The position numbers and the translations under genes are program-made. Below are positions 35,454-63,687 of a stretch of DNA of 64,000 bases, piece by piece. Positions within the stretch are counted from its first letter, which is position 1; every line of letters begins with the position of its first letter. The DNA comes from Escherichia coli (GTDB lineage: Bacteria > Pseudomonadota > Gammaproteobacteria > Enterobacterales > Enterobacteriaceae), in assembly GCA_005400705.1 (NCBI GenBank), contig GCA_005400705.1_4079.1. One strand, given 5' to 3'. The notes beneath the pieces were generated by a model, which worked only from the letters and a program-made list of their open reading frames with translations, ran no database searches and was not told where the DNA came from.

Positions 35454-35697
35454 TATGAAAGTACTGACAGAATTAGAAATGTATCATAGATTTAATAAGT
35501 ACTATCATTTACTTAAACCTATACAGAGGATTAAGTGTCCCTTTGTAGTGAAACAGGTATTAATTTATGAGCATAAGTTATTTGTATCATTAGGTACGAA
35601 TGAACAAGAGTATTATTTGAAGTTGTACTTAATTACTTTAATTGAATTGATTAATTACAAAACTCAGAAAGCGAAGAAATCTAAAAATGAAAACTAA
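35437..35697 (+). CDS. Family B small protein
   Basis: 86 aa; core LGTNEQEYYL. Confidence 0.6.
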   Translation: MEYVFNMKVLTELEMYHRFNKYYHLLKPIQRIKCPFVVKQVLIYEHKLFVSLGTNEQEYYLKLYLITLIELINYKTQKAKKSKNEN

Positions 35698-36028
35698 AAT
35701 TCAACTCAGGGTATACATATCGTATGAAAATATATACGTTAAAAGTAGTCTATGTAAAGATGTAATGGACTACAAAGGTAAACCATTCACAGTTACTTAC
35801 AGTTTAACAGGAGGTTTATATATCTCTTTTGCTAATTACGAAAATAATATGTACGAACACATTGACATTGAAGATTTAAGTACTTTATCACCAGAGGAAT
35901 ACTTCCAGGAATCATTAGTATGGGATTTAGAGTTCCCTATGCCATTAGTACATAAGATGATAGTACTAATGAAAGAATCTAAACAGGAGCCTAATAGTGC
36001 TTATGAAGAACACATTATTGAGTATTAA
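35687..36028 (+). CDS. Family C protein (embedded in family B array)
   Basis: 113 aa; core EEYFQESLVWD. Confidence 0.65.
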   Translation: MKTKIQLRVYISYENIYVKSSLCKDVMDYKGKPFTVTYSLTGGLYISFANYENNMYEHIDIEDLSTLSPEEYFQESLVWDLEFPMPLVHKMIVLMKESKQEPNSAYEEHIIEY

Positions 36029-36040
36029 GAGTACTGATAT

Positions 36041-36256
36041 ATGAAAAGATTATCATACAAAGATTACAGTAAACTTATCAGTACTTTACAACCAGAAATT
36101 AGAAGAATTAATTATCTTCCTATATCTAACGAAGAACGTGTAGTACTGAAAAATGAGTTAATCTTAAAACGCACAGTAGGTACTAACTATCAAGATAATA
36201 GTGTTCGCGATTTAATTAGAGGGTTAATGATCACAATAAAGGCCAAGTGCTATTGA
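36041..36256 (+). CDS. Family B small protein
   Basis: 71 aa; core VGTNYQDNSV. Confidence 0.65.
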   Translation: MKRLSYKDYSKLISTLQPEIRRINYLPISNEERVVLKNELILKRTVGTNYQDNSVRDLIRGLMITIKAKCY

Positions 36257-36262
36257 CAGTAC

Positions 36263-36291
36263 TTGACGGAGCTTTTCATTACTGATATAGT
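36263..36291 (+). promoter_or_regulatory. Internal sigma70-like promoter
   Basis: TTGACG 36263-36268, 17 nt, TATAGT 36286-36291. Confidence 0.4.
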
Positions 36292-36320
36292 GCATCAACG
36301 TTAATCATAGGGTACAGATT

Positions 36321-36566
36321 ATGTTAAAATTTTTAAATTTCCTTATCGTCTTGTGTATTGTTCTTGGAATTGCACCGTTTGTATTAGCGTATCTGGATTC
36401 AGATGAAATGCAGAAGATGAATTGCACAAAGACAGGACAGAGTAGAGAAGAGACGGTTATGATGCCTGTAACGGTTATTGTGAATAACATACCAATTACG
36501 AACATGATTCCTACCCTAACGACAACGTACCAGTACTCTTGTGCTGACGGAGAGAGGTGGAGATGA
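36321..36566 (+). CDS. Small membrane protein
   Basis: 81 aa; hydrophobic N-terminus MLKFLNFLIVLCIVLGIAPFVLAYL. Confidence 0.55.
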   Translation: MLKFLNFLIVLCIVLGIAPFVLAYLDSDEMQKMNCTKTGQSREETVMMPVTVIVNNIPITNMIPTLTTTYQYSCADGERWR

Positions 36567-36874
36567 AATTTAATATAGCAAAAACATCGAGTATATGTAT
36601 TTTTGGTTATTCCTATGAATTGGGTGATATTGACATTCTATTGTACAAAACGAATGGTGTTATGCATTTCAAGTACCAGGATGAAGAGGCAGACAATTAT
36701 CTTTTACCTAATTTAGTACAAATGCAGGAAGAGGAATTATTCCAGTACAGCTTAATATACGACATTGATATTTGCACGATGCCAGTATTAATTAGTATTC
36801 AAAAAGTGATGCTCGATATGTATGATAAGCTAATACAAGGTATGTCAGGGAGGATCATTGAAATCGATATATAA
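36557..36874 (+). CDS. Family C protein
   Basis: 105 aa; core EELFQYSLIYD. Confidence 0.65.
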   Translation: MEMKFNIAKTSSICIFGYSYELGDIDILLYKTNGVMHFKYQDEEADNYLLPNLVQMQEEELFQYSLIYDIDICTMPVLISIQKVMLDMYDKLIQGMSGRIIEIDI

Positions 36875-37070
36875 GAATTTACCTAATGAATATTTGTTGA
36901 AGTACAAAGAGTTTATTAAAGATGTATATGTAGATCCTTTTAATATCAAATTTGCAGAGTTCGAAGTATCATTTTATCTAGGGACAATAGTACAGGACCA
37001 ATACGTTGATAATCTAATAAGGTGTTTGAAAAAGGAGATACAATGCAGACCCAAATGTACAAAAAAATAA
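36858..37070 (+). CDS. Family B small protein
   Basis: 70 aa; core LGTIVQDQYV. Confidence 0.6.
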   Translation: MKSIYKNLPNEYLLKYKEFIKDVYVDPFNIKFAEFEVSFYLGTIVQDQYVDNLIRCLKKEIQCRPKCTKK

Positions 37071-37306
37071 ACTGTTATTTGTATGCATCAAAGTACAGGG
37101 ATTTTTGTTTACGAGGGGGAGAGGAAGATTTTGCTCTGAGATTATCGGAATTTAATATGTTATTTTATCTTGGTACATCAGTACAAGAAGAAATGGTACA
37201 GAAATTTATCAATCACCTTGTACAAAAAATTAATATGCAAATTTTGATGCTTGAGTTACAGAATGAGATAAACAAATATGAACCCAACAATAGTACAGGA
37301 TCTTAA
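37043..37306 (+). CDS. Family B small protein
   Basis: Track ORF trimmed to ATG 37043 after SD aaaggag; core LGTSVQEEMV. Confidence 0.6.
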   Translation: MQTQMYKKINCYLYASKYRDFCLRGGEEDFALRLSEFNMLFYLGTSVQEEMVQKFINHLVQKINMQILMLELQNEINKYEPNNSTGS

Positions 37307-37667
37307 ACAAGTAATATTCCTTTTGAATACAAGAAGTGAAATGTATACAGAGTTTAAAGAGATTAATGCATTTTATCAGAATTTTGTAATTCAAGAGTTC
37401 AGTGATTTAATTACAGATGCATTATTTGAATTATCGGAAAAATACAAAGGAACAGAGTTCAGTGTTAAAAATGTATTACGTTCTTTATCAACGCGTATAA
37501 TAAAATTAGATCATTTCAAATTTGAAAATAAAGATTTATTCAGTCACAATCCAAGTACAGCTTTATATTTTATTCCTGATTCAGACAAAAATCATCCTAT
37601 TCATTACGGATGGATTTTGTCGTACATAGTACAAGGAAAGGAGTATCCTATTAAATGGAACGATTAG
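37278..37667 (+). CDS. Hypothetical protein
   Basis: 129 aa ORF, no family motif. Confidence 0.5.
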   Translation: MNPTIVQDLKQVIFLLNTRSEMYTEFKEINAFYQNFVIQEFSDLITDALFELSEKYKGTEFSVKNVLRSLSTRIIKLDHFKFENKDLFSHNPSTALYFIPDSDKNHPIHYGWILSYIVQGKEYPIKWND

Positions 37668-37815
37668 GGCGATTAGATTATTACACAATTAATACAAATT
37701 ATTTGTTGCGTAATATAAAATCCGATTACAAAATATGGATAAAGAACAGAGATAGTATGTGTTATGAATTTTATTTAGATTATGCCATCAAACGCTTTTT
37801 AAGAGAAGAACATTA

Positions 37816-38007
37816 ATGCACACACCGCACAAAGAGCACAAAAATACAAAAACGATAAATGTTTTAAATGATTCTTTATTGGTGAGTATAAATTTATATT
37901 ATAAAATTCATTTAAATGGTGGTATTGAAAATTTTAGTTATTATTTGAGTGCAATATCGCAAGAGCATTTAATATACCAAGATCATTTATTGCACCCGAA
38001 TCCATAA
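37816..38007 (+). CDS. Hypothetical small protein
   Basis: 63 aa ORF, low complexity. Confidence 0.3.
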   Translation: MHTPHKEHKNTKTINVLNDSLLVSINLYYKIHLNGGIENFSYYLSAISQEHLIYQDHLLHPNP

Positions 38008-38015
38008 GGCGAATT

Positions 38016-38561
38016 ATGAATGAGATAGAATTATTAGCACACAAGATTAGTACAATAATGCTTATCCTAAATAACAACCATCCTATATCGCAGATAGATG
38101 GAATCCTGAGTCAGAGGACAGGTGGTAGTTTATATTTGACATTAACAGAGGTTATCGCAAGGAATTACATTGATATTGAAATCGAGAACAGTGATGCATC
38201 AGGAAAGGTTGATGTAGGTGCATTAATCAGTTCAAATCCAGTATCAGCATCCCCATTGACCAAAGGTGTTAGTACAGGATTCGAAGGGTATTTGTGGTAC
38301 AATACCAATGATGATTATTTTATATATCAGCATTCCAATACAAATTATGATGAAGACAAATTTCAGTTCATAGACCCTTATGATGAAGCTGAAGTATTTC
38401 AAAAATCATTAATCACAAAACCGCATGAGATGATGTATCTAATGTTATTCAGTACAATGCATTTGAATCCATTAATTAAAGGTTTAAAATTTTATATTCA
38501 ATTAAATTTAGTCCATGTAGTTTATGATTTATTAATGCAAGGATATAGTTATGAAGTATAA
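38016..38561 (+). CDS. Family C protein
   Basis: 181 aa; core EAEVFQKSLITK. Confidence 0.65.
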   Translation: MNEIELLAHKISTIMLILNNNHPISQIDGILSQRTGGSLYLTLTEVIARNYIDIEIENSDASGKVDVGALISSNPVSASPLTKGVSTGFEGYLWYNTNDDYFIYQHSNTNYDEDKFQFIDPYDEAEVFQKSLITKPHEMMYLMLFSTMHLNPLIKGLKFYIQLNLVHVVYDLLMQGYSYEV

Positions 38562-38862
38562 AATGATGTATACCCCAGATATGATTTATGTTGAATTAGA
38601 AGATGATGACGATGGGTGGAATTTGATTTATTCAAGAAGTTCAGGTTGGTACATGGCACATTTAAATGATTCGATAGTTACAGATTATTTTGTAGATTTC
38701 AATACATTATCCGATGAAGAATTGTTCCAACAGCAATTAGTGATTGACACGGGTGGTTATGATGTCTTATTATTAAAAAAGATACAAAAAGCTGTTATTG
38801 ATTTTAAGCCCATGATATGGCAAAGGAAATATTATGACCTCGAAGTACCATACCAGCAATGA
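38551..38862 (+). CDS. Family C protein
   Basis: 103 aa; core EELFQQQLVID. Confidence 0.65.
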   Translation: MKYKMMYTPDMIYVELEDDDDGWNLIYSRSSGWYMAHLNDSIVTDYFVDFNTLSDEELFQQQLVIDTGGYDVLLLKKIQKAVIDFKPMIWQRKYYDLEVPYQQ

Positions 38863-39728: not shown

Positions 39729-40213
39729 AGTTTAGTTTAGATGCTGCCTTTAAATTTGTTCACAAGATAGAAACAATATACAGTACATTATGTGCAATAC
39801 AATCAGTATCATCTGAGTTTGATGTTGGTGAAAAATATCAGGTATGGAATAATACATTTCTAAACAAAGAACGTTGCTCTACGGGGTTTAATATTTTAAC
39901 ATTTAACCCCAGCAATTGTTACCCAGAGAAGCATGAACGTTATCCGAATGACGACATGTGGTTTGATTACACAAAAGATGGTGATATGTCATCCCTTGTA
40001 GTTCCTGATGATTTTAATGCCGAAGATTTAACGAAAGAGTGGTGGTTTCAACAGAATTTAGTACACGATGATATTGATTTATTTTTTTATGTAGTATTTA
40101 AAATGCTTTACCACAACAATATATTAAAAGATAGTGTGTTTTTTTCATGTCTATATATTGATGATTTGTACAATGAAATCCAAATCAACATGCCCAGAAC
40201 GCCTGTATCGTAA
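39707..40213 (+). CDS. Family C protein
   Basis: 168 aa; core KEWWFQQNLVHDD. Confidence 0.65.
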   Translation: MQYMYDLEFSLDAAFKFVHKIETIYSTLCAIQSVSSEFDVGEKYQVWNNTFLNKERCSTGFNILTFNPSNCYPEKHERYPNDDMWFDYTKDGDMSSLVVPDDFNAEDLTKEWWFQQNLVHDDIDLFFYVVFKMLYHNNILKDSVFFSCLYIDDLYNEIQINMPRTPVS

Positions 40214-40239
40214 GATATGGGCTTTTTTCGTTTTGGTAT

Positions 40240-40268
40240 TGACAAAGAAGTGCAAAGCTGTTATCATG
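40240..40268 (+). promoter_or_regulatory. Internal sigma70-like promoter (tattgacaaag class)
   Basis: gTATTGACAAAGaagtgcaaagctgtTATCAT; preceded by gggcttttttcg. Confidence 0.5.
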
Positions 40269-40295
40269 TGTAATCATTTTAAAGGAGAACATATA

Positions 40296-40817
40296 GTGAG
40301 TTTCATAATCCCAAGTACATACGAAGATGCATCAAGTGCAGTGTATAAGGTTCATTATATTTTTAATTTAATTATTAGTGCATCAAAAAATAAAATGTAT
40401 GCACCTCTTGTGAAATATGATAAAAATGAGGAAATTTTTGTTAGCACAGAACAAACGATTTTTCCATATTTCAAAGAAGATAGATTGTGGTTCATGCATT
40501 CAGTCGCATTACAAAGATATAATATAACAAGGTCCAATGAGCATGATTATTTGGATATACAATTAGATCAACCCGATATTGGAGAGGATGAATATTTTCA
40601 GTACAGCACAGTACACCACCATGAAGATATCTTTGCTGCTATGCTTATTGCTAAATTGAACACCGTTGATTTGGAGCAGCACAAATACAATAATAAATCA
40701 TGTAAGATCATAATCCCTGCATTCATTGCTCTTTATGATTACATTGTGCATAACAAAAAAGATGATACATATGCTTTCAATGAAGAGTATTTGAATTTTT
40801 TTAAGGAGAACATATGA
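40296..40817 (+). CDS. Family C protein (probable GTG start)
   Basis: Track ORF 40134-40817; ATG 40266 lies in the -10; in-frame GTG 40296 follows SD aaaggag; core DEYFQYSTVHHHE. Confidence 0.5.
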   Translation: MSFIIPSTYEDASSAVYKVHYIFNLIISASKNKMYAPLVKYDKNEEIFVSTEQTIFPYFKEDRLWFMHSVALQRYNITRSNEHDYLDIQLDQPDIGEDEYFQYSTVHHHEDIFAAMLIAKLNTVDLEQHKYNNKSCKIIIPAFIALYDYIVHNKKDDTYAFNEEYLNFFKENI

Positions 40818-41341
40818 GCAGTGAAGTGCTGAAATCAATGACATTCAATGAAATTGGTGCATTTAAAGATAAGATCATTGATTGCATTGAATACATGATT
40901 TGTAGTAATATCGAAAGTATTGAGATATTTAACAAGACAAATCGCTCTTACCATATGATGTACATTGCAAACAATAATGGTATCATTCCATTTATTTCGG
41001 ATAGTACAATATGGTACGCATGTGATACGAAAAAAACCACAATAGGTTTACATTCATTTGAGACACATTATGATCTAATTATTCCTGAACATTGTATGCA
41101 AGAAGAAGAATATTTTCAAATGCAATGTATACATTCACCATTAGTGTTGTTTAGTTTATATATTATACCTTATATCACCAAATGTGTTCATGAGAATAAA
41201 GCTCCGTGGAATCATGAATTTGTATCGTTGAAGTTATTGTATAATGTATTAGTAGAATATTATGATTACAGGCACAATGGTACAATCAGTGATGTATGGG
41301 ATTTTGAATCGCTAAGGGTGAAAACATACACAGGTGAATGA
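40814..41341 (+). CDS. Family C protein
   Basis: 175 aa; core EEEYFQMQCIHS. Confidence 0.65.
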   Translation: MSSEVLKSMTFNEIGAFKDKIIDCIEYMICSNIESIEIFNKTNRSYHMMYIANNNGIIPFISDSTIWYACDTKKTTIGLHSFETHYDLIIPEHCMQEEEYFQMQCIHSPLVLFSLYIIPYITKCVHENKAPWNHEFVSLKLLYNVLVEYYDYRHNGTISDVWDFESLRVKTYTGE

Positions 41342-42680: not shown

Positions 42681-43021
42681 GTAGATTTTCAGTTTATATA
42701 GTAAACGTCAGTAAAGATGGTAGTTTAATTGAATTTGATGTAGTTGATAACAATGATAATTCATATGGTATTAAGGTACAGGACAATGATGTACAGTTCA
42801 GTACAAGGACAAATTTTGAGAATCCAGTCCAAGTTCCGAATTTCATAGAAGATGAAGCTGCACGATTCCAATACGAAACGGCCTTTGATAATTTAGCGAT
42901 GCATATTATTATGCAAGAAAGTTTAGTTCAATTGCTTCAGGTATTCAGACAAAATATATATGTACATGAAGTGTCGATTAATGGCATTCAAAGTTCCGTT
43001 TTGTTCGGTACAAATATGTAA
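42677..43021 (+). CDS. Family C protein
   Basis: 114 aa; core EAARFQYETAFD. Confidence 0.6.
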   Translation: MSRFSVYIVNVSKDGSLIEFDVVDNNDNSYGIKVQDNDVQFSTRTNFENPVQVPNFIEDEAARFQYETAFDNLAMHIIMQESLVQLLQVFRQNIYVHEVSINGIQSSVLFGTNM

Positions 43022-43031
43022 GGAAAGTACA

Positions 43032-43586
43032 ATGAGTTCAATGAGTTTATTAGATACATTAGAAAAAGACAGAAGTGCCATTAAGAGATTAAAAAATCTT
43101 GTCCAGAGCATTGCGAACAACGCTGAGAAGTTCAGTGACAATCTTAGTATAGGTGATATAACCAGTACAGGAATAAAATCCCTGAAGTCAGATTTATTAA
43201 TTCATAAGGAAGATAAATTATTATTTGTATTGAGTTCAGATTTAATGGTTGCAAGTAATGGTTTCAATTCGATATCAACACAAGATGGTAGCACAGGATT
43301 ATATCTATCACAGGGTGTCCAGACGAACGAACAGAAGTGTTTTAGTTCAGGAGTACAGAATCCCTTTAAGTTCAGTACAGAACAAGCTACAGAGCTTTTA
43401 GAGGCTTCAGAAGAGATGTTATTTCAGTACAAAACGGTTCATACAGATTTTGAATTACGATGCATGTACGCTGTTAAGCATTATGTTCAGGAGTTCGAGG
43501 ATTTAAGTTATCTTTTAGTTCGAACGAATACAAAGAACATTGGTGCATTAGAAGATTACATTTCAAAAGTTGTTAAAGGTTGTTAA
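43032..43586 (+). CDS. Family C protein
   Basis: Track ORF 42960-43586 trimmed to ATG 43032 after SD aaggaaag; core EEMLFQYKTVHTD. Confidence 0.6.
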   Translation: MSSMSLLDTLEKDRSAIKRLKNLVQSIANNAEKFSDNLSIGDITSTGIKSLKSDLLIHKEDKLLFVLSSDLMVASNGFNSISTQDGSTGLYLSQGVQTNEQKCFSSGVQNPFKFSTEQATELLEASEEMLFQYKTVHTDFELRCMYAVKHYVQEFEDLSYLLVRTNTKNIGALEDYISKVVKGC

Positions 43587-44164: not shown

Positions 44165-44364
44165 AGACGTTTCATTTTGACAGGCCGCAGGGGGGTCAAA
44201 AAAATTTCCGCTGAAAAACATGCTAAGGTATATGTTTAATATAAAGTTTTATATTGTGTTTTTCAGAGTACAGTTTATGTTTCCTGAAACAAAAAAAAAA
44301 TACCCCGCCACCGAACGTGCTCCTTATATTGGAGTTTACCTTATTAATTATAGTAGAGATTAAG

Positions 44365-44742
44365 ATGGAAATAAAATATAATGAATTTTGTGCAAGGACA
44401 TGGATGTACACTGGTGAGTTAGTTACGCACTCTAACTTATACAAGGGTGATTTAAACTACGCTAGGGACAAGATTTTAAAGTACTGGAATGCTGACTTTT
44501 ATTTGATGGATTTTAGTACTGGGTTTAGGGGTAAAGCAACCGAGATGTTGGACTATACAGTACTTGATGATGCTGCACTGTTTCAGGAGGCATTAGTATT
44601 TGATAAGAAGTACATCTGTACATTAGAAGAGATGATTGAATTACAGCGTAGAATTAAATGTATTCACAGGGAATGTATAGATATCTGGTGCAGTACTGGT
44701 GAAGTTGATTTTTGTAATCATTTCAATCTAGGGGAAGTGTGA
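44365..44742 (+). CDS. Family C protein
   Basis: Track ORF 44254-44742 trimmed to ATG 44365 (MEIKYNEF); core DAALFQEALVFDKKYICT. Confidence 0.6.
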   Translation: MEIKYNEFCARTWMYTGELVTHSNLYKGDLNYARDKILKYWNADFYLMDFSTGFRGKATEMLDYTVLDDAALFQEALVFDKKYICTLEEMIELQRRIKCIHRECIDIWCSTGEVDFCNHFNLGEV

Positions 44743-45098
44743 TGGAATTTGATTTTTTAATATCAGTACATTCTTTTAAGCACAGTTTTCAGTACTTTTG
44801 TAATTTAAACAAAGGTGATTTAATGCACAGTGCGAATGAGTATATTCATTTTACTGATGGTAAATTCTCATTTATTGATTACAGTTCATTAGATTTTCCA
44901 TACACTGATATGCCGGACTATACATTGATGGATGCTGGTGAACTATTTCAAGCTGCATTAGTATTTGACAAGAAGTACATCTGTACATTTGAAGAAGTAA
45001 TTACTATACAAAATGAAATGAAGGTGTATGCATCGTTGAATAAACCTAATGAATGTATTAATCAAGAATACAAATTCAATATAGGAATTCCAAAATGA
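44739..45098 (+). CDS. Family C protein
   Basis: 119 aa; core GELFQAALVFDKKYICT. Confidence 0.7.
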   Translation: MMEFDFLISVHSFKHSFQYFCNLNKGDLMHSANEYIHFTDGKFSFIDYSSLDFPYTDMPDYTLMDAGELFQAALVFDKKYICTFEEVITIQNEMKVYASLNKPNECINQEYKFNIGIPK

Positions 45099-45454
45099 CA
45101 TATGATTATTCTATGTACTATTATAAGTTACCTAAAGGATGGGACTTGTGCTGTAATCTTATTAAGGGAGACTCGGAACATGAGTTGAGTTTATATATGC
45201 ACTACAAAGATTCTTGTTTTAAATTTATTCATGTATTACATGATGGCTATGACTATGAATCTGAGAGTCTTATAGATTATACAGTACTGGACGATGGTGA
45301 ACTATTTCAGGAAGCATTAGTGTTTGATAAGAATAAGTACTCCTGTACATTTGAAGAAATGGTTTCTTTGCAAAATGAAATGAAGAGATTTGAAAAAGAA
45401 AACGTATTTAATCCATCCCCATCAAGAACGAATAATTATTATTTCAATATATGA
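45095..45454 (+). CDS. Family C protein
   Basis: 119 aa; core GELFQEALVFDKNKYSCT. Confidence 0.7.
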   Translation: MTYDYSMYYYKLPKGWDLCCNLIKGDSEHELSLYMHYKDSCFKFIHVLHDGYDYESESLIDYTVLDDGELFQEALVFDKNKYSCTFEEMVSLQNEMKRFEKENVFNPSPSRTNNYYFNI

Positions 45455-45958: not shown

Positions 45959-45959
45959 A

Positions 45960-46867: not shown

Positions 46868-46869
46868 TA

Positions 46870-52493: not shown

Positions 52494-52519
52494 CACCCTC
52501 CGATTCTTTGTGATATAAT
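52490..52519 (+). promoter_or_regulatory. Internal sigma70-like promoter within an inverted repeat
   Basis: TTGACA 52490-52495, 18 nt, TATAAT 52514-52519; tgtgatataa (52508-52517) pairs with ttatatcaca (52541-52550). Confidence 0.45.
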
Positions 52520-53514: not shown

Positions 53515-53869
53515 TACAACAACAATTCAGTACATGACGGATGGCAATGATTGCTTTGCTTCAAGATATGAATTCATCAAGAACCATTTCGTAACCTATA
53601 TCCCTGAATATAATCAGTTTTATCTACAGATTTACCAAAATGATTCATATATGAATGAGATATATTCTGAAATAAAAATCCCTGATTATAGTACTTTATC
53701 AGAAGAGGAATTGTTTCAGGAGAGCACTGTCAATACTGAAGATGTGTACGAACTAATGGAATACCAGAAGGTACTTAAATATTTCCATGAAGTTCAGGAT
53801 ATACAAATGGATAGTGTTAAAACGTGGAATTATAACACATACGAGGTAAATTATGTTCGAAATGATTAA
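53507..53869 (+). CDS. Family C protein
   Basis: 120 aa; core EELFQESTVNTE. Confidence 0.65.
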   Translation: MHNTTTIQYMTDGNDCFASRYEFIKNHFVTYIPEYNQFYLQIYQNDSYMNEIYSEIKIPDYSTLSEEELFQESTVNTEDVYELMEYQKVLKYFHEVQDIQMDSVKTWNYNTYEVNYVRND

Positions 53870-54266
53870 AATTATGCAACGATGCATTGTTGACCAACAT
53901 GGAATATATGGATATAGTTTAAGTGCAGCTATTGACAAAAACAAAACAACCTATGTAAGATATAATGCAGTACTTGGATTTGATATATTCATTGATGCTA
54001 ACAATAAAATCAAACAAGCTAAGGATGTGTCTATAATGACCCCTGACGAGTTATTTCAGTACAGCTTAGTTCTGCCCACCTGTATTGATTTACAACGCCT
54101 AGGAGCTATACAGAAGGTTTTACGCGAACATAAAGTACAACCAAATAAAATTACACACATCCCAGAAACATTCTACAAACCAATAGAAGTAGAAACACCT
54201 GATTATATGTTAAGTGATGATGAGTTCTACAAGAAACACTTCCCTGGTAAAGTTTGGAGAGAATAA
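53853..54266 (+). CDS. Family C protein
   Basis: 137 aa; core DELFQYSLVLP. Confidence 0.65.
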   Translation: MFEMIKIMQRCIVDQHGIYGYSLSAAIDKNKTTYVRYNAVLGFDIFIDANNKIKQAKDVSIMTPDELFQYSLVLPTCIDLQRLGAIQKVLREHKVQPNKITHIPETFYKPIEVETPDYMLSDDEFYKKHFPGKVWRE

Positions 54267-54748
54267 TGAACAGAAAGTACAGAGAAACTATGAAGTTCGC
54301 TAAGGAGTGTTTAGAGACAGTTGATTTCATTTTCGATAACAAAGACTCATTGGGTCGCCACTTCGTAATTACAAAGAAAGAAGATAAGAGATACAAATGT
54401 CAACGATTAGGATACAGTATTGAGTTCTCCTTAATGATTGACGGAATGATAAACTCCTTATATGAATGTGGTAAGACTGATTACATTTCATTTAGATCAT
54501 GGAGTGAAGGTATCATGTTCTTGAGAACAAATGGAGTTATATATCCTTTTATTGATGATTTATCAGAAGAAAGTTACTTTCAAAATACTTTAATTTACAC
54601 AGAAAAAGAACTCAAGATGCTATTCATTATGTCGTACTTTAAAAAGTACTGCAAATTTAAATCATTAGCTTTTGAGATTTCTGCAATGAAAGTATTCATT
54701 AAAAATGTAAAAGAATTAAAGAGGATTTACGATGTACATAGAAAATGA
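54254..54748 (+). CDS. Family C protein
   Basis: 164 aa; core EESYFQNTLIYTE. Confidence 0.65.
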   Translation: MERIMNRKYRETMKFAKECLETVDFIFDNKDSLGRHFVITKKEDKRYKCQRLGYSIEFSLMIDGMINSLYECGKTDYISFRSWSEGIMFLRTNGVIYPFIDDLSEESYFQNTLIYTEKELKMLFIMSYFKKYCKFKSLAFEISAMKVFIKNVKELKRIYDVHRK

Positions 54749-55274: not shown

Positions 55275-55834
55275 ATATCAATGATTACCAATTTCATAGG
55301 CTTGAATTTCGTCATTGTGTTGCATTTGCAAAAACATTGATGTGCATCATTGACACTCTTTCATCCAAACAATTTCGTAAGGATAATGATTTATTTCTGA
55401 AAAAAGGTCGTGTAACATCAACTGATATCGGTATTGAACTATTTGTTGATATCAGTGTTGATACCGGAGACAGTACAAGGGTTGGTTGTATAGGTCATAT
55501 TGGTACACATTGCTTCACATGGAATCCAAATACAAGTCAAGTGCGAATTGATTATAGAAATTCACGTTGGGTTGATCTTAGTACTGAATCAGATTTAGAA
55601 TCAGCTATGTTCCAGCTAAGTTTAATTCATAATCCTAATGAACTTCTTTACATTATTACTTTCAGTTATCTGTTACAAAACTACGATAATCCATCAGGGT
55701 TTTTCATGGAATCGGATATAGAAGAAATTATGGCAGTGTTTCCTAGTTTAAAGGATATTCTGGAAGAAAAAGATTTCTATGAAGACTTCAGAGATTTATA
55801 CGACATGCACTTGGAGTTATTTAAGAATGGATAA
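55271..55834 (+). CDS. Family C protein
   Basis: 187 aa; core ESAMFQLSLIHN. Confidence 0.65.
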   Translation: MNINDYQFHRLEFRHCVAFAKTLMCIIDTLSSKQFRKDNDLFLKKGRVTSTDIGIELFVDISVDTGDSTRVGCIGHIGTHCFTWNPNTSQVRIDYRNSRWVDLSTESDLESAMFQLSLIHNPNELLYIITFSYLLQNYDNPSGFFMESDIEEIMAVFPSLKDILEEKDFYEDFRDLYDMHLELFKNG

Positions 55835-56345
55835 AGATGATATTCTAATTAGACTAATTAATAGTTTAATAAAGTTCTCAAATAATGATGTCGATACATA
55901 CAAAGTAGGGGATATTGAATTTAAATCATTTGGTATGTACGGTGAGGATAAAACATATTATGCGTCAATGAAATTTCAAGATTTTCACGAGATGTTAATA
56001 TCGTTATCATATGAAGATGTTGATCCAAGATGGAGTTCCAGTATTTCACTATCGAGAATGGTAATTCGTAGTAAGCATCGTTATATTTCGTCAAAGAATA
56101 CTCCTAACTTGATTAATATTGTGTTGAATGAAAATACAAATCCCCTATCTAAACATGATATCGTACCGTTAACCGATGAAGTTCTTTTTCAATTGAGTAC
56201 CATTTGTGATGAAGATGTGATATCATGTATGAAAATTTATGAGAAGGTTGGGAGTGATATTCCCATGAACTATTACCTAACTATAGATGGAACGTACCTT
56301 CGAGATGAGGTTCTAGCGTACATTGACAGTGTTTTACCAAAATAA
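55827..56345 (+). CDS. Family C protein
   Basis: Track ORF 55779-56345 trimmed to ATG 55827 (MDKDDILIRL); core DEVLFQLSTICDE. Confidence 0.6.
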   Translation: MDKDDILIRLINSLIKFSNNDVDTYKVGDIEFKSFGMYGEDKTYYASMKFQDFHEMLISLSYEDVDPRWSSSISLSRMVIRSKHRYISSKNTPNLINIVLNENTNPLSKHDIVPLTDEVLFQLSTICDEDVISCMKIYEKVGSDIPMNYYLTIDGTYLRDEVLAYIDSVLPK

Positions 56346-56368
56346 AGACCCGTATGGGTCTTTTTGTG
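56346..56368 (+). terminator. Rho-independent terminator inside the family C array
   Basis: agaccc-gtat-gggtct then ttttgtgttt. Confidence 0.6.
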
Positions 56369-56375: not shown

Positions 56376-56404
56376 CTTTACAAGAGCATTCAGGTGTGTT
56401 ATAC
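56376..56404 (+). promoter_or_regulatory. Internal sigma70-like promoter
   Basis: TTTACA 56376-56381, 17 nt, TATACT 56399-56404; SD ggagg before ATG 56433. Confidence 0.4.
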
Positions 56405-56432
56405 TTGATTTTAAATAGAGTTGGAGGAATCT

Positions 56433-56999
56433 ATGAGTACTGAATTAATTAAAGAAGTCACATTACTTCTGAAGCATTGTTTTAAGTTCATTCCTGATAC
56501 TGGTTCCCGCCAGTACATTAAAGTCAATGAGAAATATAACATCAATATCCTTGCATCCGAAACTGCAAGCAGTTATGCTAACATTGAGTTGGATTCTGAA
56601 GAAAAATATACAGTATTACAAATCATATCAGATGTACAACGTAAACAAGATTATCGTTCTTCATTTTACAACGATCATCTGTGTGTTTGCTCAAACTTCA
56701 GTGAGAATAAAATTGTGTATACGAATTTATACACACATGAAGTGATTGATACATATAATTATAAAATTTCATCTGATGAATACAATGTTCTAATGTTCAA
56801 CGCAAACCTTTTGTATGATGCCAGTACTGTACGCTGTTTAGAGTTAGCATATAAAATTCCAAAGATCATGGAAAGAAAAGATTTGATTCACTTTAAAACT
56901 ATTTTAAAATACAGTACAAAAGAATTAGAGGATTTAGTACAGGCTCTTAAGAATTTCATTAATGAACATGTACCTGTTAAATTCGAGGATGCACAATGA
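56433..56999 (+). CDS. Family C-like protein (degenerate core)
   Basis: Track ORF trimmed to ATG 56433 (MSTELIKE) after SD ggagg; DEYNVLMFNANLLYD. Confidence 0.55.
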   Translation: MSTELIKEVTLLLKHCFKFIPDTGSRQYIKVNEKYNINILASETASSYANIELDSEEKYTVLQIISDVQRKQDYRSSFYNDHLCVCSNFSENKIVYTNLYTHEVIDTYNYKISSDEYNVLMFNANLLYDASTVRCLELAYKIPKIMERKDLIHFKTILKYSTKELEDLVQALKNFINEHVPVKFEDAQ

Positions 57000-57580
57000 A
57001 CCATATCAGAACTAAAATTTTGAGACTCATGCATGACATTGCAGAACTTTCAGAGATTCATGACATTACGGAAATTGTTGAATTTGATAATTATCGACTG
57101 AAAATTGAAAACAAATCCAAACATCGTTTTGGTTCAGTTCAGTTGGATGTATATAAAACTTATGAATTTTCTAAAAAAATTAAAAGTTCATGGGATACGA
57201 TTACTATGTACATTCGCACATCCAGAAATCGTGAACGTATTGGTTCTATTTCTTATAATATGGTATTTGCGAATGCATTACATGAAAAAATGAATAAAAT
57301 TGTAGAATCTAATTTCAGTGAAGATGATGGTTTTATTGGTTTGGAAGTTCCACCAGAATTAGACCAAAGTGAAGATATTCGAGATGCATTCATTTTCCAG
57401 AAATCATTGTTGGACAATTACAAAGAATTCGAGTACTTAATGCTTTGTTACGATACTGCAAAAGTTCTTGATTGTGGTGAACTAGTTATGTACAATGATT
57501 TTATCAATTGCAAGACTGATGTTCTGAATACACTACTTCAAAATATAGAATCTGTTAAGGAAAAATATGAACGCTTATAG
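56996..57580 (+). CDS. Family C protein
   Basis: 194 aa; core RDAFIFQKSLLDN. Confidence 0.65.
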   Translation: MNHIRTKILRLMHDIAELSEIHDITEIVEFDNYRLKIENKSKHRFGSVQLDVYKTYEFSKKIKSSWDTITMYIRTSRNRERIGSISYNMVFANALHEKMNKIVESNFSEDDGFIGLEVPPELDQSEDIRDAFIFQKSLLDNYKEFEYLMLCYDTAKVLDCGELVMYNDFINCKTDVLNTLLQNIESVKEKYERL

Positions 57581-58573: not shown

Positions 58574-59079
58574 GTTTATTAAATGCACGCGAATTGGTTG
58601 AGATGTATGAGATTTTGTCTTCATATAAAAATTCTCATGGAGATGTGATTCTCGACAAAAAGTTCCATGTCAGTGTTGAAAATATATCAAATATAGATAT
58701 GATTTCTTTGGTGGAAAGTAATAAGTCAGGTCTTGAACGCGATATCATGCGTTTGATTTATATTCCCAAACCATCATATACTAATGATAGTTCAATTAGT
58801 AATGAGACATTCATGTATAGTCCTGGTACGGATTCTACTATAGTATCGCTGTCCAATAAATCAATGGGTACTTTCCAATTCATCTATACCAGTACTGATA
58901 ACATTGAAGAAATTGAATTTCAAAACAATACATTAAGTCCATGTAGTAGTGTTATAACCTTTATGTCATATCTATGGTCAACTAAAACAAGTGCTGTTGT
59001 ATATAGTTCAAATTATACACAAGATAGTATTGTTGAATCATATAAAGTTCTAAAGGAATACTATGAAAATAACAAATGA
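58570..59079 (+). CDS. Family C protein
   Basis: 169 aa; core EEIEFQNNTLSP. Confidence 0.6.
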   Translation: MSLLNARELVEMYEILSSYKNSHGDVILDKKFHVSVENISNIDMISLVESNKSGLERDIMRLIYIPKPSYTNDSSISNETFMYSPGTDSTIVSLSNKSMGTFQFIYTSTDNIEEIEFQNNTLSPCSSVITFMSYLWSTKTSAVVYSSNYTQDSIVESYKVLKEYYENNK

Positions 59080-59644
59080 TTTTATTAAAAGTGTAGTACA
59101 CCCTATGCTTAGTATTATGAAAAAAATACAGAATCTACCGGAAGATAACGATTACAAGTTTAATCGTTTTGATTCAGATGTGTTTTGTATTGAAATTGAA
59201 ATTAATAACAATCGCAATTTACATTTAAAATTCAAAGAATCGTCAAGTCCGTACTACAACTTTGATATGAATTTTAAAATAGATACTGACATTGAAGAAA
59301 ACGTAATATCAAATCATACTAGCAAAAATGGTTTTATGCATAGAACTACTATGTACAATAATAAAAATAGTATTATATCTAAATGGAATCATCAATTCAC
59401 TAAAATTTGTGAAATTGTATATAGTGATTTTGGTGAAGAGAATTACTTTCAGTTAAGTACAATTCATGAACTTCCACCGTATGATTATGTTAAAACATGG
59501 TTTGATATTCATAATATAATTGATGATGCAATCAAACTTCCATTTGGTGTGTCAATATCATATACTGCTCCTAAAACATTTGTTTTTACTGAAGATATGA
59601 TTATGAAAAAGATATGGGCAATTATCCCACTTATGATGGATTAA
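59063..59644 (+). CDS. Family C protein
   Basis: 193 aa; core EENYFQLSTIHE. Confidence 0.65.
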   Translation: MKITNDFIKSVVHPMLSIMKKIQNLPEDNDYKFNRFDSDVFCIEIEINNNRNLHLKFKESSSPYYNFDMNFKIDTDIEENVISNHTSKNGFMHRTTMYNNKNSIISKWNHQFTKICEIVYSDFGEENYFQLSTIHELPPYDYVKTWFDIHNIIDDAIKLPFGVSISYTAPKTFVFTEDMIMKKIWAIIPLMMD

Positions 59645-59658
59645 ATTCGTACCAGGGG

Positions 59659-59687
59659 TTGACTCTGGTATTTTTGTATGATACATT
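59659..59687 (+). promoter_or_regulatory. Candidate internal promoter
   Basis: TTGACT 59659-59664, 17 nt, TACATT 59682-59687; overlapping inverted repeat accag/ctggt. Confidence 0.3.
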
Positions 59688-59705
59688 GTCCTAAAGGAGA
59701 ATTTT

Positions 59706-60257
59706 ATGAACTACAATCATGATCTTTTTACATTATGTGCATCCAAATGTGTTGATGGATGGACAGATAAAATCAATACCATAATTCATCGATATCTGGT
59801 CTTTAGTTCTCGTGCACGAAGTGAGGGGGCTATGGATTTCAAATATACACTATCTATTGATGGTGTAACTATCCATGCAGACGAAGAACGTCTGAGCATT
59901 AATTTGTATGATTCCTGTGTATTTGCTATTCACCAAAAGATGGGGAAAGGATGGGGTTGTAATAACATTAACTCAAAAGCTATCTTTTGGGTTGGTCACC
60001 ACCAGACAGTACTTGATCCTTCAATCAAATCTAATCTTTTATCCGATAATATGGTTTATGATTTATTGTACTCCGAAGAACAACATTTTCAGTTAAGTAC
60101 ATTACATGATCTGGCACAGTACGAGGATTGTTACAAAACATTAGAACTATGCCATTCCCTTGAACTTAAAGATAAATTGATACAAGTTTACCCTTCATTC
60201 TTTCATGAAGAAGTACAAAGTACACTAGATCATATTTTATATGGATACGATAAATGA
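59706..60257 (+). CDS. Family C protein
   Basis: 183 aa; core EEQHFQLSTLHD. Confidence 0.65.
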   Translation: MNYNHDLFTLCASKCVDGWTDKINTIIHRYLVFSSRARSEGAMDFKYTLSIDGVTIHADEERLSINLYDSCVFAIHQKMGKGWGCNNINSKAIFWVGHHQTVLDPSIKSNLLSDNMVYDLLYSEEQHFQLSTLHDLAQYEDCYKTLELCHSLELKDKLIQVYPSFFHEEVQSTLDHILYGYDK

Positions 60258-60856
60258 GAAAAAGTTATCAAGAAGCTATTGACTTAATTCGTGAAGTTAT
60301 CAAGGTGGCTCCTGCTGCTATTGAGTTCAAGAAGTCCATATACAAGAAGTATGGTTCAATGTCGAGTATGTGCTTTCAAAAGAAACGTAGAGCATTCACT
60401 ACCCAGTACTGGAATGATTCTATCATCCTGAGCAATGAGACTCAGCGTATTTTAACACTAGAATCTGAACCTAATGAGTACGGGGAAGGGAACATTTGTG
60501 TACCTGATTATGATGAAATTAACTTCAACTGCGGTGATTTTGAAACAACATTATTACTTCATGAGGGTTATCCAGAAGGTGATGTATTAGCTGAGTACAA
60601 TCCAAAAACTAAAATTCTCAAAAGAGGAATCCAGTTCACTATTAATAACAAAGATGATGTTCAAGCAGCACTGATGCAACTGAGTACAAGTGAACCTATC
60701 ACTATTAGTGTAGAAGAGTTATGGGGAATTATTTCAGTACTCAATGAGTGCTATAAAGTAAAATCATTGCGTAAACACAGCATTATATTACATACCAATA
60801 TGGCAAATATAAAATGTAAGCACATTCAAGAAATGGTGGTTCCAGATGGACTTTAA
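60254..60856 (+). CDS. Family C-like protein
   Basis: 200 aa; core QAALMQLSTSEP. Confidence 0.55.
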   Translation: MRKSYQEAIDLIREVIKVAPAAIEFKKSIYKKYGSMSSMCFQKKRRAFTTQYWNDSIILSNETQRILTLESEPNEYGEGNICVPDYDEINFNCGDFETTLLLHEGYPEGDVLAEYNPKTKILKRGIQFTINNKDDVQAALMQLSTSEPITISVEELWGIISVLNECYKVKSLRKHSIILHTNMANIKCKHIQEMVVPDGL

Positions 60857-61430
60857 AGAAATTGAAAGTAAATTAAAGTACTTCAAAGATATCAAACTTC
60901 TTTGGGAAAAGTATAAAGTTGATTACAATTTCAGTGATGATGACACTGTAAAAACAATTGAGATTAATATCAAAATCAAGTTCAAGAATAATAATTATGG
61001 TGAAGTAACCTTAAATCATACTGGTATATCACTCAAGGACTATGATGGTTCAACACTCGCATATTTTGACTTCACACCAGAACCAGGTGAAACACTACTT
61101 AGTGAGATAAATTCCTATGACATGGAAGTGTTCGGCGGGAATCCGTTACTGTTCCGACTTTCTGAAGATTGGAGTGAAGAATACTACACTTACAAAGATG
61201 GTGTAGTACTTGACATTAATGGTGAAGTTGTGAATGACTTGGAAGAACGCTTGTTCCAAGAATTGTGTGTTTCAAATACTTCATATGCATACAATCATAT
61301 CCTTGACATGTTTGATTTATATAGTAAAATAGATGCTGAAATGAATGCACATGGTATTCATTATCTTACAATCAACGACTATGCTCAACTTGAAACTGTA
61401 GTGAAAGCATTGACTAAAGTACTGAAATAG
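60846..61430 (+). CDS. Family C protein
   Basis: 194 aa; core EERLFQELCVSN. Confidence 0.6.
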   Translation: MDFKEIESKLKYFKDIKLLWEKYKVDYNFSDDDTVKTIEINIKIKFKNNNYGEVTLNHTGISLKDYDGSTLAYFDFTPEPGETLLSEINSYDMEVFGGNPLLFRLSEDWSEEYYTYKDGVVLDINGEVVNDLEERLFQELCVSNTSYAYNHILDMFDLYSKIDAEMNAHGIHYLTINDYAQLETVVKALTKVLK

Positions 61431-61439
61431 GAATGAAAT

Positions 61440-61853
61440 ATGAAACTGTATCATGCGAGTACTGTAAAAATTGATAACTTTTATATCCCGTATGGTGGTC
61501 TTCATATGGGAGGTAAACACAGTGCTTTGGAAGCTGCATTACGCAAGCTCAGAAGTCCACTGAACGTAGTAGACGCATGTACAGTATACTTGCATACCTT
61601 AGAAGTTGATGTTGATAACGTGCTTCTGTGTGAAGATTTAGGCAGTGATGATGAGTGGCGTTCACTTATTGAGAATTGCACTGCTCAAGGTTATGATGCT
61701 GTTCAGTACAAAAATGATTACGAGCCAGACAATGTTCCTAGTTTTATGATTTGGGATGCATCTAAAGTTCGCATCATTGAAGTTGATGCTATGCATATGG
61801 ATGAAGCTGAAATGATTATCGAAGATTTTCTTGATGAATATGAAGGTGTATAA
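61440..61853 (+). CDS. Hypothetical protein
   Basis: 137 aa ORF without family core. Confidence 0.5.
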   Translation: MKLYHASTVKIDNFYIPYGGLHMGGKHSALEAALRKLRSPLNVVDACTVYLHTLEVDVDNVLLCEDLGSDDEWRSLIENCTAQGYDAVQYKNDYEPDNVPSFMIWDASKVRIIEVDAMHMDEAEMIIEDFLDEYEGV

Positions 61854-62371
61854 TGATTGAACCTATGACAGTACTAGCACGTACTAAATTATTATTGAGG
61901 ATTGGTGAGATATTCACTGATATTTTGTACAGTGGGATTGATATACTTGAATTAGGCATTAAGCAACCGTGGGAATTAACCAAGTTCTCTGCGTTCCATC
62001 GTTTATCCTATAAAGGGGAAACGGTTCTTGACTTGAACCCCAAAGCCAGATTCATGGACTATGCAGCTTTATATGGAACATGTGGAGGAATAACAAATGA
62101 TTTCAAAGAAATTAAAGTTCAAACAGCGTCACATGAATTTAATGATTTATTATATCCAGAATTTAAGTTAACAGAAGAATCATTCTTCCAGTACTCATTG
62201 ATTTTAAAAGATCTTAATGATTTAGAGTACTACAAAGAGTTAGTAGATATTTTTATTAATACACGACTTTCAAAAGATATTGTGATATTCTGGTATACAG
62301 AGCATGTTACGGAGGAATTGCTTACTGAATTTCTTCTAAATATGACAGCTATAAAGGAGAAGTTATGTTAG
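61853..62371 (+). CDS. Family C protein
   Basis: 172 aa; core EESFFQYSLILKD. Confidence 0.65.
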   Translation: MIEPMTVLARTKLLLRIGEIFTDILYSGIDILELGIKQPWELTKFSAFHRLSYKGETVLDLNPKARFMDYAALYGTCGGITNDFKEIKVQTASHEFNDLLYPEFKLTEESFFQYSLILKDLNDLEYYKELVDIFINTRLSKDIVIFWYTEHVTEELLTEFLLNMTAIKEKLC

Positions 62372-62838
62372 ATATTTTAGGAAACATCGACACTGCAAAT
62401 TATTTTATTCAAGATGCATTGTTTAATACAGTACAACAAGGTTTAGAAGTTCACCACAATGTTTATCAGGGTGATGGATATTTTGTTGATATTATCGAGA
62501 CACGTAAAAATACATTTAATGTTAACATTACGACGCTTGGAAGACAGAACATTGCACGAATTTTAGTAAGTAAAGATGAAATAGTACTGAGATACAGTGC
62601 TAAGTTTATGTTGACTTATAAGAAAAAAACTGATATGTTCAGTACTAATTTATTTGATGAGCCATTTGACCTTGAAGATATTGAAGCTACTTTCTTTACT
62701 CAAAGTACTATGGTAAAATACACTGATGTTCAATTTTCTGCTGATGTAATGTCAGAAACATTACAAATGATCAAGGTATTATTTTATGCATTTGAGCAAT
62801 TTAGAGAAGAAAGAAACAAGGTTAACAACCACAGATGA
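62365..62838 (+). CDS. Family C-like protein
   Basis: 157 aa; core EATFFTQSTMVKY. Confidence 0.55.
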   Translation: MLDILGNIDTANYFIQDALFNTVQQGLEVHHNVYQGDGYFVDIIETRKNTFNVNITTLGRQNIARILVSKDEIVLRYSAKFMLTYKKKTDMFSTNLFDEPFDLEDIEATFFTQSTMVKYTDVQFSADVMSETLQMIKVLFYAFEQFREERNKVNNHR

Positions 62839-63199
62839 ACTAATAGAGGCGATCACTAAGGAGTCAAAATACCATAAAGGTATTCGTCTATACTTTATAG
62901 ATACTGGTTCGATGGAAGGTACATACATTTATGGTTCACAATCGTTGTCTTATGATGCAATGCCAAATAAACATGTTAAAATCTTTTTAGGTTCAAGTAA
63001 TAAAACTTTCTTGACAATTAATGATAGCAGTGTTATTATGAATTCGTTGGGTCATGATAAGGTGGAAATTGATCTAAACACGCTGGAGGATATTGATTTT
63101 TTTCAATACGAGTGTTTAGGTGTTGACTTACATGGCATTAGTAGCGATATGATAAAATCATTAATCAAATATTTCGAAGGTGTTCATAAATGTATCTAA
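62786..63199 (+). CDS. Family C-like protein (start uncertain)
   Basis: 137 aa; core DIDFFQYECLGVD; 52 nt overlap with previous ORF. Confidence 0.5.
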   Translation: MHLSNLEKKETRLTTTDELIEAITKESKYHKGIRLYFIDTGSMEGTYIYGSQSLSYDAMPNKHVKIFLGSSNKTFLTINDSSVIMNSLGHDKVEIDLNTLEDIDFFQYECLGVDLHGISSDMIKSLIKYFEGVHKCI

Positions 63200-63687
63200 C
63201 TAAATCAATGAAAAATTCATTTGATAAAATCAAGAGTTGTCTTGATGGAGAAAATATTACAAGTGTTACACAAACTGCTGACCAAATTCAAAGCAGTTCA
63301 AGTGATTGCACTGTTATTTTTGGTTTACATAGTCTGCGTTTATCAATAGTAAATAATATTGACAACACTGCTATTGTAATCACACCATGCAATATTCAAA
63401 ATGAGAATGGTGTATATCTTCATCACATGGGAACAGTATTTCACATTTTCAATTCAAACGAAAACATTGTTAAGGAATACAATACTCTTAATATTGATTC
63501 AGGTGAATTATTTCAAATGAGTACTTTGTACTCATGTAATTTTACAGATACTTCATGTATTTTGCCATTTTTCTTGGAAATTATTAAGAAAATGGAAAAT
63601 TTAAAACGTGAATACAATAAAGAAATGGTTCCTGAAGCTATATTAAATATTACTAATGCTATAGAGAAGTATAATGCAGTGACTTAA
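63190..63687 (+). CDS. Family C protein
   Basis: 165 aa; core GELFQMSTLYS. Confidence 0.65.
   Translation: MYLTKSMKNSFDKIKSCLDGENITSVTQTADQIQSSSSDCTVIFGLHSLRLSIVNNIDNTAIVITPCNIQNENGVYLHHMGTVFHIFNSNENIVKEYNTLNIDSGELFQMSTLYSCNFTDTSCILPFFLEIIKKMENLKREYNKEMVPEAILNITNAIEKYNAVT

Follow-up and report, generated by a model that had tools for sequence, protein, structure and literature searches.

Lineage-specific expansion of paralogous genes is a known phenomenon in giant viruses, exemplified by the MGF360/505 families of African swine fever virus (ASFV) and the ankyrin/PRANC families of poxviruses. Such expansions are thought to serve host interaction or regulation. Bacillus phage G carries a zinc-ribbon family of roughly 35 copies (Iyer et al. 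2021, PMC7824862). For Escherichia phage 121Q, one sentence in the literature mentions tandem duplication (Hua et al. 2017, mBio, PMC5646251); the array meant is unspecified, and a 2026 review echoes the sentence (PMC13282480). We analyzed a stretch of 64,000 nucleotides deposited as Escherichia coli (GenBank assembly GCA_005400705.1, contig GCA_005400705.1_4079.1), here called the window, and examined a tandem gene array at positions 35,687-63,687. The array encodes 44 members of one protein family, which we call the FQ family; it is real and apparently undescribed, in phages that have already been sequenced, and it adds to the known lineage-specific expansions of giant viruses. Like the zinc-ribbon family of phage G, it consists of dozens of tandem small-domain paralogs in one viral lineage. 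It differs from the giant-virus expansions in its unrelated fold, in its unusually stable copy number and gene order, and in the extreme divergence of its paralogs. The 121Q sentence concerns the same phage lineage and genome region, without a family definition, motif, structure or function.

A tandem family of 44 genes in a jumbo coliphage

A comparison of 12 kb of the array shows 96.4% identity to phage 121Q and 85-95% identity to ~35 further Asteriusvirus jumbo coliphages, including PBECO4, Sharanji, phAPEC6, G17 and EC.P1, and to some Salmonella phages. The window is DNA of a 121Q-related Asteriusvirus jumbo coliphage, in which 28 kb, or ~8% of a 350 kb genome, is given to a single protein family. 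All public copies of the family that we saw are annotated "hypothetical protein".

A local hidden Markov model (HMM) built from the core region was run against the 574 six-frame open reading frames (ORFs) of the window. It matched 44 ORFs, all on the + strand and all within 35,687-63,687; no further match appeared among the 574, even at E<=10. When each member was dropped from the profile and then rescored (leave-one-out), 38 of the 44 kept E<1e-3, and those at 42677, 48850, 58570, 59706, 60254 and 60846 scored weakly. Members account for 44 of the 54 + strand ORFs of at least 95 amino acids (aa) in the interval and cover 21.5 of its 28 kb, with 4-nucleotide (nt) overlaps of the ATGA type at 22 gene junctions. 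The 44 HMM members, arranged head to tail on one strand, form a lineage-specific tandem multigene family of a large virus. The original prediction, made from the DNA letters, had described about 50 head-to-tail paralogs with ATGA overlaps and had placed two outlying genes, 35687 and 36557, among them. The arrangement and both outliers are borne out, and the very large tandem family is real, with a firm count of 44.

A search for the string E..FQ.S yields 21 occurrences in the three + frames against 0 in the three - frames, and the motif sits in the called ORFs. These counts, which settle the frame check proposed with the prediction in its favour, together with the HMM membership rule out a chance or wrong-frame artefact.

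Ten non-member ORFs of at least 95 aa are interspersed in the array. To see whether any of them is a cryptic member, we ran hhalign with single sequences and with ortholog profiles and looked for PHROG cross-hits. A trace of relationship was found for 62786 (hhalign probability 24%) and perhaps for 58145 (7%), while hhalign and PHROG cross-hits gave zero trace for 37278, 39387, 48099, 50292, 54732 and 61440. An ORF of phage A4 with a core near-identical to that of 62786 (LDGDLFQYECIGLN) matches the HMM at 7e-06. A gene outside the array, 7043, had been listed as a variant of the family and stands as a probable degenerate member only; its hhalign match spans the motif and the helix after the motif. 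The array of 121Q likewise ends at the ortholog of 63190-63687.

Members and array features are listed below. Rows without a stated basis rest on a match to the local HMM (44 members), with leave-one-out results as graded above.

35687-36028, + strand: short form, 113 aa, SPEEYFQESLVWD; HMM E 1.7e-14, leave-one-out 3e-09
36557-36874, + strand: short form, 105 aa
38016-38561, + strand: long form, 181 aa; also phrog_19795
38551-38862, + strand: short form, 103 aa
38834-39400, + strand: member, 188 aa
39707-40213, + strand: member, 168 aa; terminator-like hairpin 40201-40222 at its end
40134-40817, + strand: member, called start too early (121Q gene 354 is 501 nt); the true start probably lies past the promoter-like site 40239-40267
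40814-41341, + strand: member, 175 aa
41334-41957, + strand: member, 207 aa
42162-42680, + strand: member, 172 aa
42677-43021, + strand: divergent short form, 114 aa, RFQYE; HMM 2.7e-09, leave-one-out 0.012
42960-43586, + strand: member, start probably later than called
44254-44742, + strand: first of a short-form trio, start probably near 44362; promoter-like site 44177-44205 upstream
44739-45098, + strand: second of the short-form trio
45095-45454, + strand: third of the short-form trio
45464-45958, + strand: modelled long form, 164 aa, motif S113-D125; AlphaFold
45960-46430, + strand: member of the YYFQ sub-cluster
46427-46867, + strand: member of the YYFQ sub-cluster
46870-47358, + strand: member of the YYFQ sub-cluster, 57% identical to 45464, the closest paralog pair
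47336-47788, + strand: member of the YYFQ sub-cluster
47785-48099, + strand: short form, 104 aa
48404-48853, + strand: member, 149 aa, TEEGYFQGS (full TEV consensus)
48850-49386, + strand: divergent member, 178 aa; HMM 3.5e-15, leave-one-out 0.39
49741-50301, + strand: member, 186 aa
50900-51262, + strand: modelled short form, 120 aa; AlphaFold
51186-51629, + strand: member, start probably near 51255
51608-51949, + strand: short form, 113 aa
51909-52493, + strand: member, 194 aa as called
52490-52519, + strand: σ70-type promoter-like site in a gap, TTGACA-18-TATAAT with TG; 12/12 matches
52553-53035, + strand: member, 160 aa; allele 94% identical to EC.P1 and 58% to 121Q
53032-53514, + strand: member, 160 aa, TEEMYFQGS
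53507-53869, + strand: short form, 120 aa
53853-54266, + strand: member, 137 aa
54254-54748, + strand: member, 164 aa
55271-55834, + strand: member, 187 aa; also phrog_22855
55779-56345, + strand: member, 188 aa; followed by a terminator-like hairpin 56344-56363 and a promoter-like site 56377-56405
56996-57580, + strand: member, 194 aa
57567-58145, + strand: member, 192 aa
58570-59079, + strand: divergent member, EFQNN; HMM 3.2e-13, leave-one-out 0.0024
59063-59644, + strand: member, 193 aa; followed by a terminator-like hairpin 59649-59671
59706-60257, + strand: divergent member, 183 aa
60254-60856, + strand: member, 200 aa, MQ replaces FQ; HMM 6.6e-12, leave-one-out 0.11
60846-61430, + strand: divergent member, 194 aa
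61853-62371, + strand: member, 172 aa
62786-63199, + strand: possible degenerate member, FFQYEC; hhalign probability 24%
63190-63687, + strand: last member, 165 aa
7043-7702, + strand: probable distant member outside the array, EEEFMYSTVID, M for Q; hhalign 50%, E 1.6e-4, 37 columns

The core motif is conserved at the protein level

The core motif reads [ST]-E-E-x-[YLF]-F-Q-x-S-[TL]-[VIL]-[YH]. For its statistics we pooled the members of the window with the arrays of RaK2 and A4 and 137 database representatives, and used 247 of 252 sequences. The motif starts with T or S (62%), E (79%), E (78%) and a variable position; its middle consists of Y, L or F (42, 19 and 9%), F (99%), Q (100%), a variable position and S (87%); and it ends with T or L (49 and 44%), V, I or L (92%), Y or H (43 and 22%) and D or N (49%). 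An acidic stretch and then a hydrophobic stretch come after it. The core had been called invariant, which is close to the mark for F and Q; 60254, however, has MQ, and S is replaced by A, N, Q or K in some members.

Codon usage at the motif is mixed, with TTT/TTC at 20/18, CAA/CAG at 22/22, and serine encoded by AGY 21 times vs TCN 10 times. The mixed synonymous codons indicate that conservation acts on the protein and not on a DNA element. Likewise, a DNA-level repeat or recombination signal is ruled out by the synonymous codons and by the presence of both serine codon families at the motif.

The members are predicted to fold as one compact domain

An alignment of 31 long members reveals common elements along the full length. 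From N to C these are a helix S-L-x-x-A-φ-x-x-A-x-x-I, a "Y-I-S-Y" strand and the motif, followed by a hydrophobic helix, a "F-Y-L-D" strand and a C-terminal helix. The N-terminal halves are divergent yet alignable. Members are about 105-200 aa in size, and most are acidic (isoelectric point, pI, 4-5.7).

We modelled a long and a short form with AlphaFold. The long-form model (45464, 164 aa; predicted local distance difference test, pLDDT, 81.9; predicted TM-score, pTM, 0.78) displays a helix at residues 3-22, six strands, the motif helix 114-120, a turn, a helix 126-140, a strand and a helix. The short-form model (50900, 120 aa; pLDDT 84.3, pTM 0.77) displays five strands, a helix 64-77 carrying the motif, a helix 82-98 and a last strand. 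In both models the motif residues are helical, in blocks of mean pLDDT 97-98. The predicted structure is one compact domain, an antiparallel β-sheet platform under a helical hairpin, with the motif in the first hairpin helix and the next turn; the long forms are predicted to be the same domain with an additional N-terminal helix. The S/T and the E-E after it, where the helix begins, resemble an N-capping box.

Structural matches in BFVD were uncharacterised proteins only, mostly of 121Q, RaK2, SP27, GAP32, Serratia phage BF and Yersinia phage fHe-Yen9-03. The significant ones (E<=0.001) are other family members, matched over the full length with TM-scores reaching 0.74. In a profile search, the matches to 137 representative clusters were also mostly full length. 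These full-length matches and the single compact domain seen in both models speak against the architecture of the original prediction, a fixed core fused to hypervariable N-terminal domains.

The motif has the short string E-x-x-[YL]-F-Q in common with the cleavage sites of the tobacco etch virus (TEV) NIa protease, ENLYFQ/S, and of the rhinovirus 3C protease, LEVLFQ/GP. The core, E-x-x-[YL]-F-Q/x-S, might be cleaved by a 3C/NIa-like protease; the original prediction had raised the resemblance to a NIa/TEV site and deemed it probably coincidental. The sequences TEEGYFQGS (48404) and TEEMYFQGS (53032) indeed match E-x-x-Y-x-Q-[GS] exactly, with EVLFQ found in 55779. However, only 2 of the 44 members fit the full consensus, and the context and the P1' position differ from the viral sites, with Y, L, N, Q or E at P1' in most members. 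Furthermore, in both models the motif forms a confident helix buried in the compact domain, not an exposed linker. A tblastn search with a TEV protease sequence gave 0 matches in 50,697 phage records, a whole-phage-proteome profile scan not having been made, and the annotation of phAPEC6 lists a head protease of the prohead core scaffold and protease kind and not of the 3C type. We regard the chance that the motif is a processing site as negligible.

Comparison with databases and the literature

Pfam gave 0 matches at E<=0.1 for 10 members and no recurrent family at E<=5 for 31 members. The NCBIfam search returned noise only, the PDB sequence profile search gave 0 matches at E<=10, and no convincingly similar solved structure was found. 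Among sheet-plus-two-helix domains, we compared the major histocompatibility complex (MHC) class I-like α1α2 platform and further folds (HFE, UL18, cowpox OMCP, the RNA polymerase β lobe, the polo box), and none is convincingly similar. Pfam, NCBIfam and PDB profiles gave no match to known domain families, including SUKH/Imm immunity and anti-restriction proteins. DNA-mimic anti-restriction proteins of the Ocr/ArdA type share the acidic pI, yet neither structure nor sequence comparison gave a match to them. Profile searches thus assign no known housekeeping domain, and the suspicion that the family is undescribed agrees with the lack of a Pfam, NCBIfam or PDB relative.

Members are scattered over PHROGs 9317, 12674, 19795, 13866, 15629, 22855, 31297, 35972 and 38467, all of 'unknown function'. 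The PHROGs hold the members but split the family over many groups with weak cross-hits, never uniting it nor naming the motif. Literature on 121Q, PBECO4, Sharanji, phAPEC6, Asteriusvirus and RaK2, and reviews of jumbo phages, contained only the one-sentence mention of tandem arrays, and in none of the papers found is the family, its motif or its fold defined. The present analysis supplies a motif, a fold model and positional orthologs in both Asteriusvirus and Alcyoneusvirus. Joining >10 PHROGs into one family offers a way into a sizeable part of jumbo-phage dark matter.

The array is old, syntenic and under purifying selection

A profile search of 1.84 billion representative proteins returned 137 clusters only, nearly all of ~110-210 aa, with a few short fragments. 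The named clusters belong to 121Q-like phages, JNE01, A4, RaK2, K64-1 and Muenster, or to contigs of roughly 350 kb that carry an E. coli label. The family is confined to RaK2-like jumbo phages that infect enterobacteria. The 121Q locus holds 45 copies, EC.P1 48, the divergent coliphage A4 43 and Klebsiella phage RaK2 28; restriction to a single lineage, with a copy number that varies among relatives, marks a lineage-specific multigene family. The array is syntenic among relatives, upstream of the same conserved genes and a dam methylase. In phage A4 (locus L005), the array is interrupted midway, at 37,131-38,543, by a 1.4 kb gene with the annotation 'methyl-accepting chemotaxis protein', and an HNH endonuclease lies near the array end; the window has no counterpart of the HNH or the chemotaxis gene.

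Within the window, BLASTP at E<1e-3 recovers only 47 of 946 paralog pairs, of which the closest (46870 vs 45464) shares 57% identity. The paralogs are anciently diverged. The sub-cluster 45464-47788, previously taken for a recent duplication, shows 31-58% identity and has four counterparts in phage A4, indicating that its duplication is not recent. Positional orthologs are kept, and allele identity is mosaic, ranging from 54 to 100% at one position. Most genes are 95-100% identical to 121Q, while in a block of five consecutive members (52,553-54,748) identity is 58-86% to 121Q and 93-100% to EC.P1; the 52553 member is 100% identical to vB_Ec-M-J. Such a mosaic block inside a 121Q-like region points to recombinational allele exchange in the array.

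The ratio of non-synonymous to synonymous substitution rates (dN/dS, ω) against EC.P1 is 0.26 for the N-terminal part and 0.21 for the C-terminal part; against 121Q, the values are 0.36 and 0.32. In 10-codon bins, ω has its minimum at the motif (0.10-0.19) and its maximum just upstream of it (0.35-0.73). All bins are below 1, and we see no gene-wide or regional positive selection between orthologs. The copies are functional genes under purifying selection and not hypervariable cassettes, so that the N-terminal hypervariability of the original prediction does not extend to orthologs.

These data bear on several explanations of the array. The hairpin, through the exposed E-E...Q...D side of the motif helix, might dock all paralogs on one partner, e.g. 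a host protease, RNA polymerase or a phage enzyme, while the variable sheet recruits different substrates; large eukaryotic viruses have comparable families of the F-box or BTB type. F and Q at 99-100% and E-E at 78-79% across 247 members that are otherwise ~20% identical would fit such an adaptor, as would the dN/dS minimum at the motif and the conserved polar residues, which are unusual in a purely structural core. We found, however, zero similarity to known adaptor domains, and the exposure of the residues is deduced from helical periodicity alone; we consider this explanation unlikely.

A role inside the phage cycle, for example in chaperone-like or scaffolding support of sets of phage proteins or of the compartments for replication or assembly, would be in line with the stable copy number (43-48), the conserved order and the purifying selection across lineages whose flanking gene is 40% identical, all of which resemble housekeeping. 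Yet 28 copies suffice in RaK2, mosaic alleles (54-100% at the same position) are atypical of core machinery, and none of the proteins was detected in virions. Its probability appears to us similarly low.

Genome filling has been suggested for the 121Q arrays (Hua et al. 2017, PMC5646251), with tandem duplicates enlarging the genome for a larger capsid. Functionless filler is difficult to reconcile with intact ORFs in all copies, dN/dS of 0.2-0.35, a motif retained while the paralogs fell to ~20% identity, and an array that is syntenic across genera. We find it very unlikely.

Transcription context and absence from virions

The array is almost gap-free, and its few gaps hold σ70-consensus promoter-like sites and terminator-like hairpins. 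Terminator and promoter occur as pairs at 40201-40222 / 40239-40267 and 56344-56363 / 56377-56405; further sites are a terminator at 59649-59671 and promoter-like sites at 36263 and 44177.

Upstream, at 10,044-29,759, a strong early promoter of the σ70 type, AAAAAGTACTTGCA-N17-GTATAATGTTTTACAT, is present in at least 24 copies. A GC-rich hairpin (GGGGGAAAtGGTTCTCCCC) comes after most copies and precedes a Shine-Dalgarno sequence and ATG; the copies create spurious ORF starts, e.g. 'MFYIERGK'. The conserved hairpin in the 5' untranslated region may be a regulatory or RNA-stability element. The last early-promoter copy precedes a second tandem array, with an LGTNYQE core, which leads into the FQ family. 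The position of the array, directly downstream of at least 24 promoters of the early type, makes early transcription by host RNA polymerase probable. Within the same clade, phage PA5oct relies on the RNA polymerase of its host, and most of its early genes encode uncharacterized proteins (PMC7318152).

Mass spectrometry detected 62 proteins in phAPEC6 virions (PMC7247149), and none of the phAPEC6 orthologs, gp402c-gp466c, is among them. The family proteins are not virion components. This result largely refutes the proposal that they are packaged internal head or ejection proteins, such as the T4 internal proteins or the inner-body paralogs of phiKZ. The proposal draws on the inner body of phAPEC6 and on the ability of jumbo phages to package paralogous internal proteins; we now assign it a minimal probability.

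Proposed role

We tentatively propose, at somewhat less than even odds, that the family supplies a set of binding proteins that act early inside the host cell, in host takeover or counter-defence. The genes would be translationally coupled in a few operons with σ70-consensus promoters and intrinsic terminators, and host RNA polymerase would transcribe them early. The proteins would bind intracellular partners, with the conserved hairpin as invariant fold core and possibly as a common contact surface, while the divergent sheet and loops would give every paralog its own target. Together the paralogs would equip the phage with a fixed stock of factors for host takeover or counter-defence. That every copy is kept as a positional ortholog under purifying selection suggests that the copies are non-redundant, and absence from virions combined with an early-type transcription context fits an effector role. 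If the proteins are host-targeting binders, they would be a source of dozens of new inhibitors or adaptors that act on proteins of E. coli and Klebsiella, and they could help explain host-range differences among therapeutic jumbo phages.

Several points weigh against this proposal. Purifying selection with no bin of ω >1, together with a stable copy number, is unlike the usual arms-race arsenal. The total of promoter-like sites is not above shuffled expectation, which leaves only their placement in gaps as informative. We found no Asteriusvirus transcriptome in the literature, and early timing is read from the promoter consensus only. The AlphaFold inputs were shallow, paralog-only alignments of 31 and 13 sequences, and for every member we infer the host-takeover or counter-defence role. 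Finally, the conserved polar residues E, E, Q, S and D/N could mark a ligand-binding or catalytic site. In that case the cluster of E-E, Q, S, Y/H and D/N would bind a small molecule, a nucleotide signal or a metal, and the proteins would be sponges or enzymes, which we judge quite improbable.

In one further reading, the family would be a hitherto unrecognised fold that acts as a modular targeting system. Its [ST]EExYFQxS hairpin would plug the paralogs into one shared host or phage machine (protease, RNA polymerase), and ~45 sheets would capture different host proteins. We hold this to be rather unlikely, slightly more so than the general adaptor scheme discussed above. If true, RaK2-like jumbo phages would possess a hard-wired set of substrate adaptors or inhibitors comparable, in a bacterial virus, to the F-box, BTB and MGF families known from giant eukaryotic viruses. 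If the motif is purely structural, the family still offers a useful example of how far sequences can diverge on one fixed scaffold.

Neighbouring elements in the window

The second tandem family comprises 28 genes of 64-94 aa with an L-G-T-[ND]-[YF]-Q-E core, at 29,751-35,697 and 37,022-37,306. A relationship between the LGTNYQE family and the FQxS family is ruled out (hhalign probability 0.1%). The remark on '>30 very similar genes' in 121Q is probably better matched by the LGTNYQE array than by the FQ family.

At 10,435-10,594, where the coding strand turns from - to + and the GC skew flips sign, there are 8-bp periodic repeats (GGAyGGCT / AGACGGCT) that could be a replication origin or iteron array. 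Four units of ~100-120 nt are found at 19,331-19,458, 22,717-22,839, 25,718-25,840 and 28,163-28,285. Each has its own promoter, TTGACTCCGGTCAGyCCCTTTGCTATTATAT, and a conserved downstream sequence, CCCACmGGGTGCATAAaTGTATC, with no obvious ORF; the units may be small RNA genes.

On the - strand, 516-5,332 encodes four paralogs (375-390 aa) whose N-termini (MLPFVRMFDYGN) are nearly identical. Their counterparts in phAPEC6 appear to be the proteins annotated with DNA-condensation or chromosome-condensation domains; several proteins annotated for DNA condensation were detected in phAPEC6 virions (PMC7247149).

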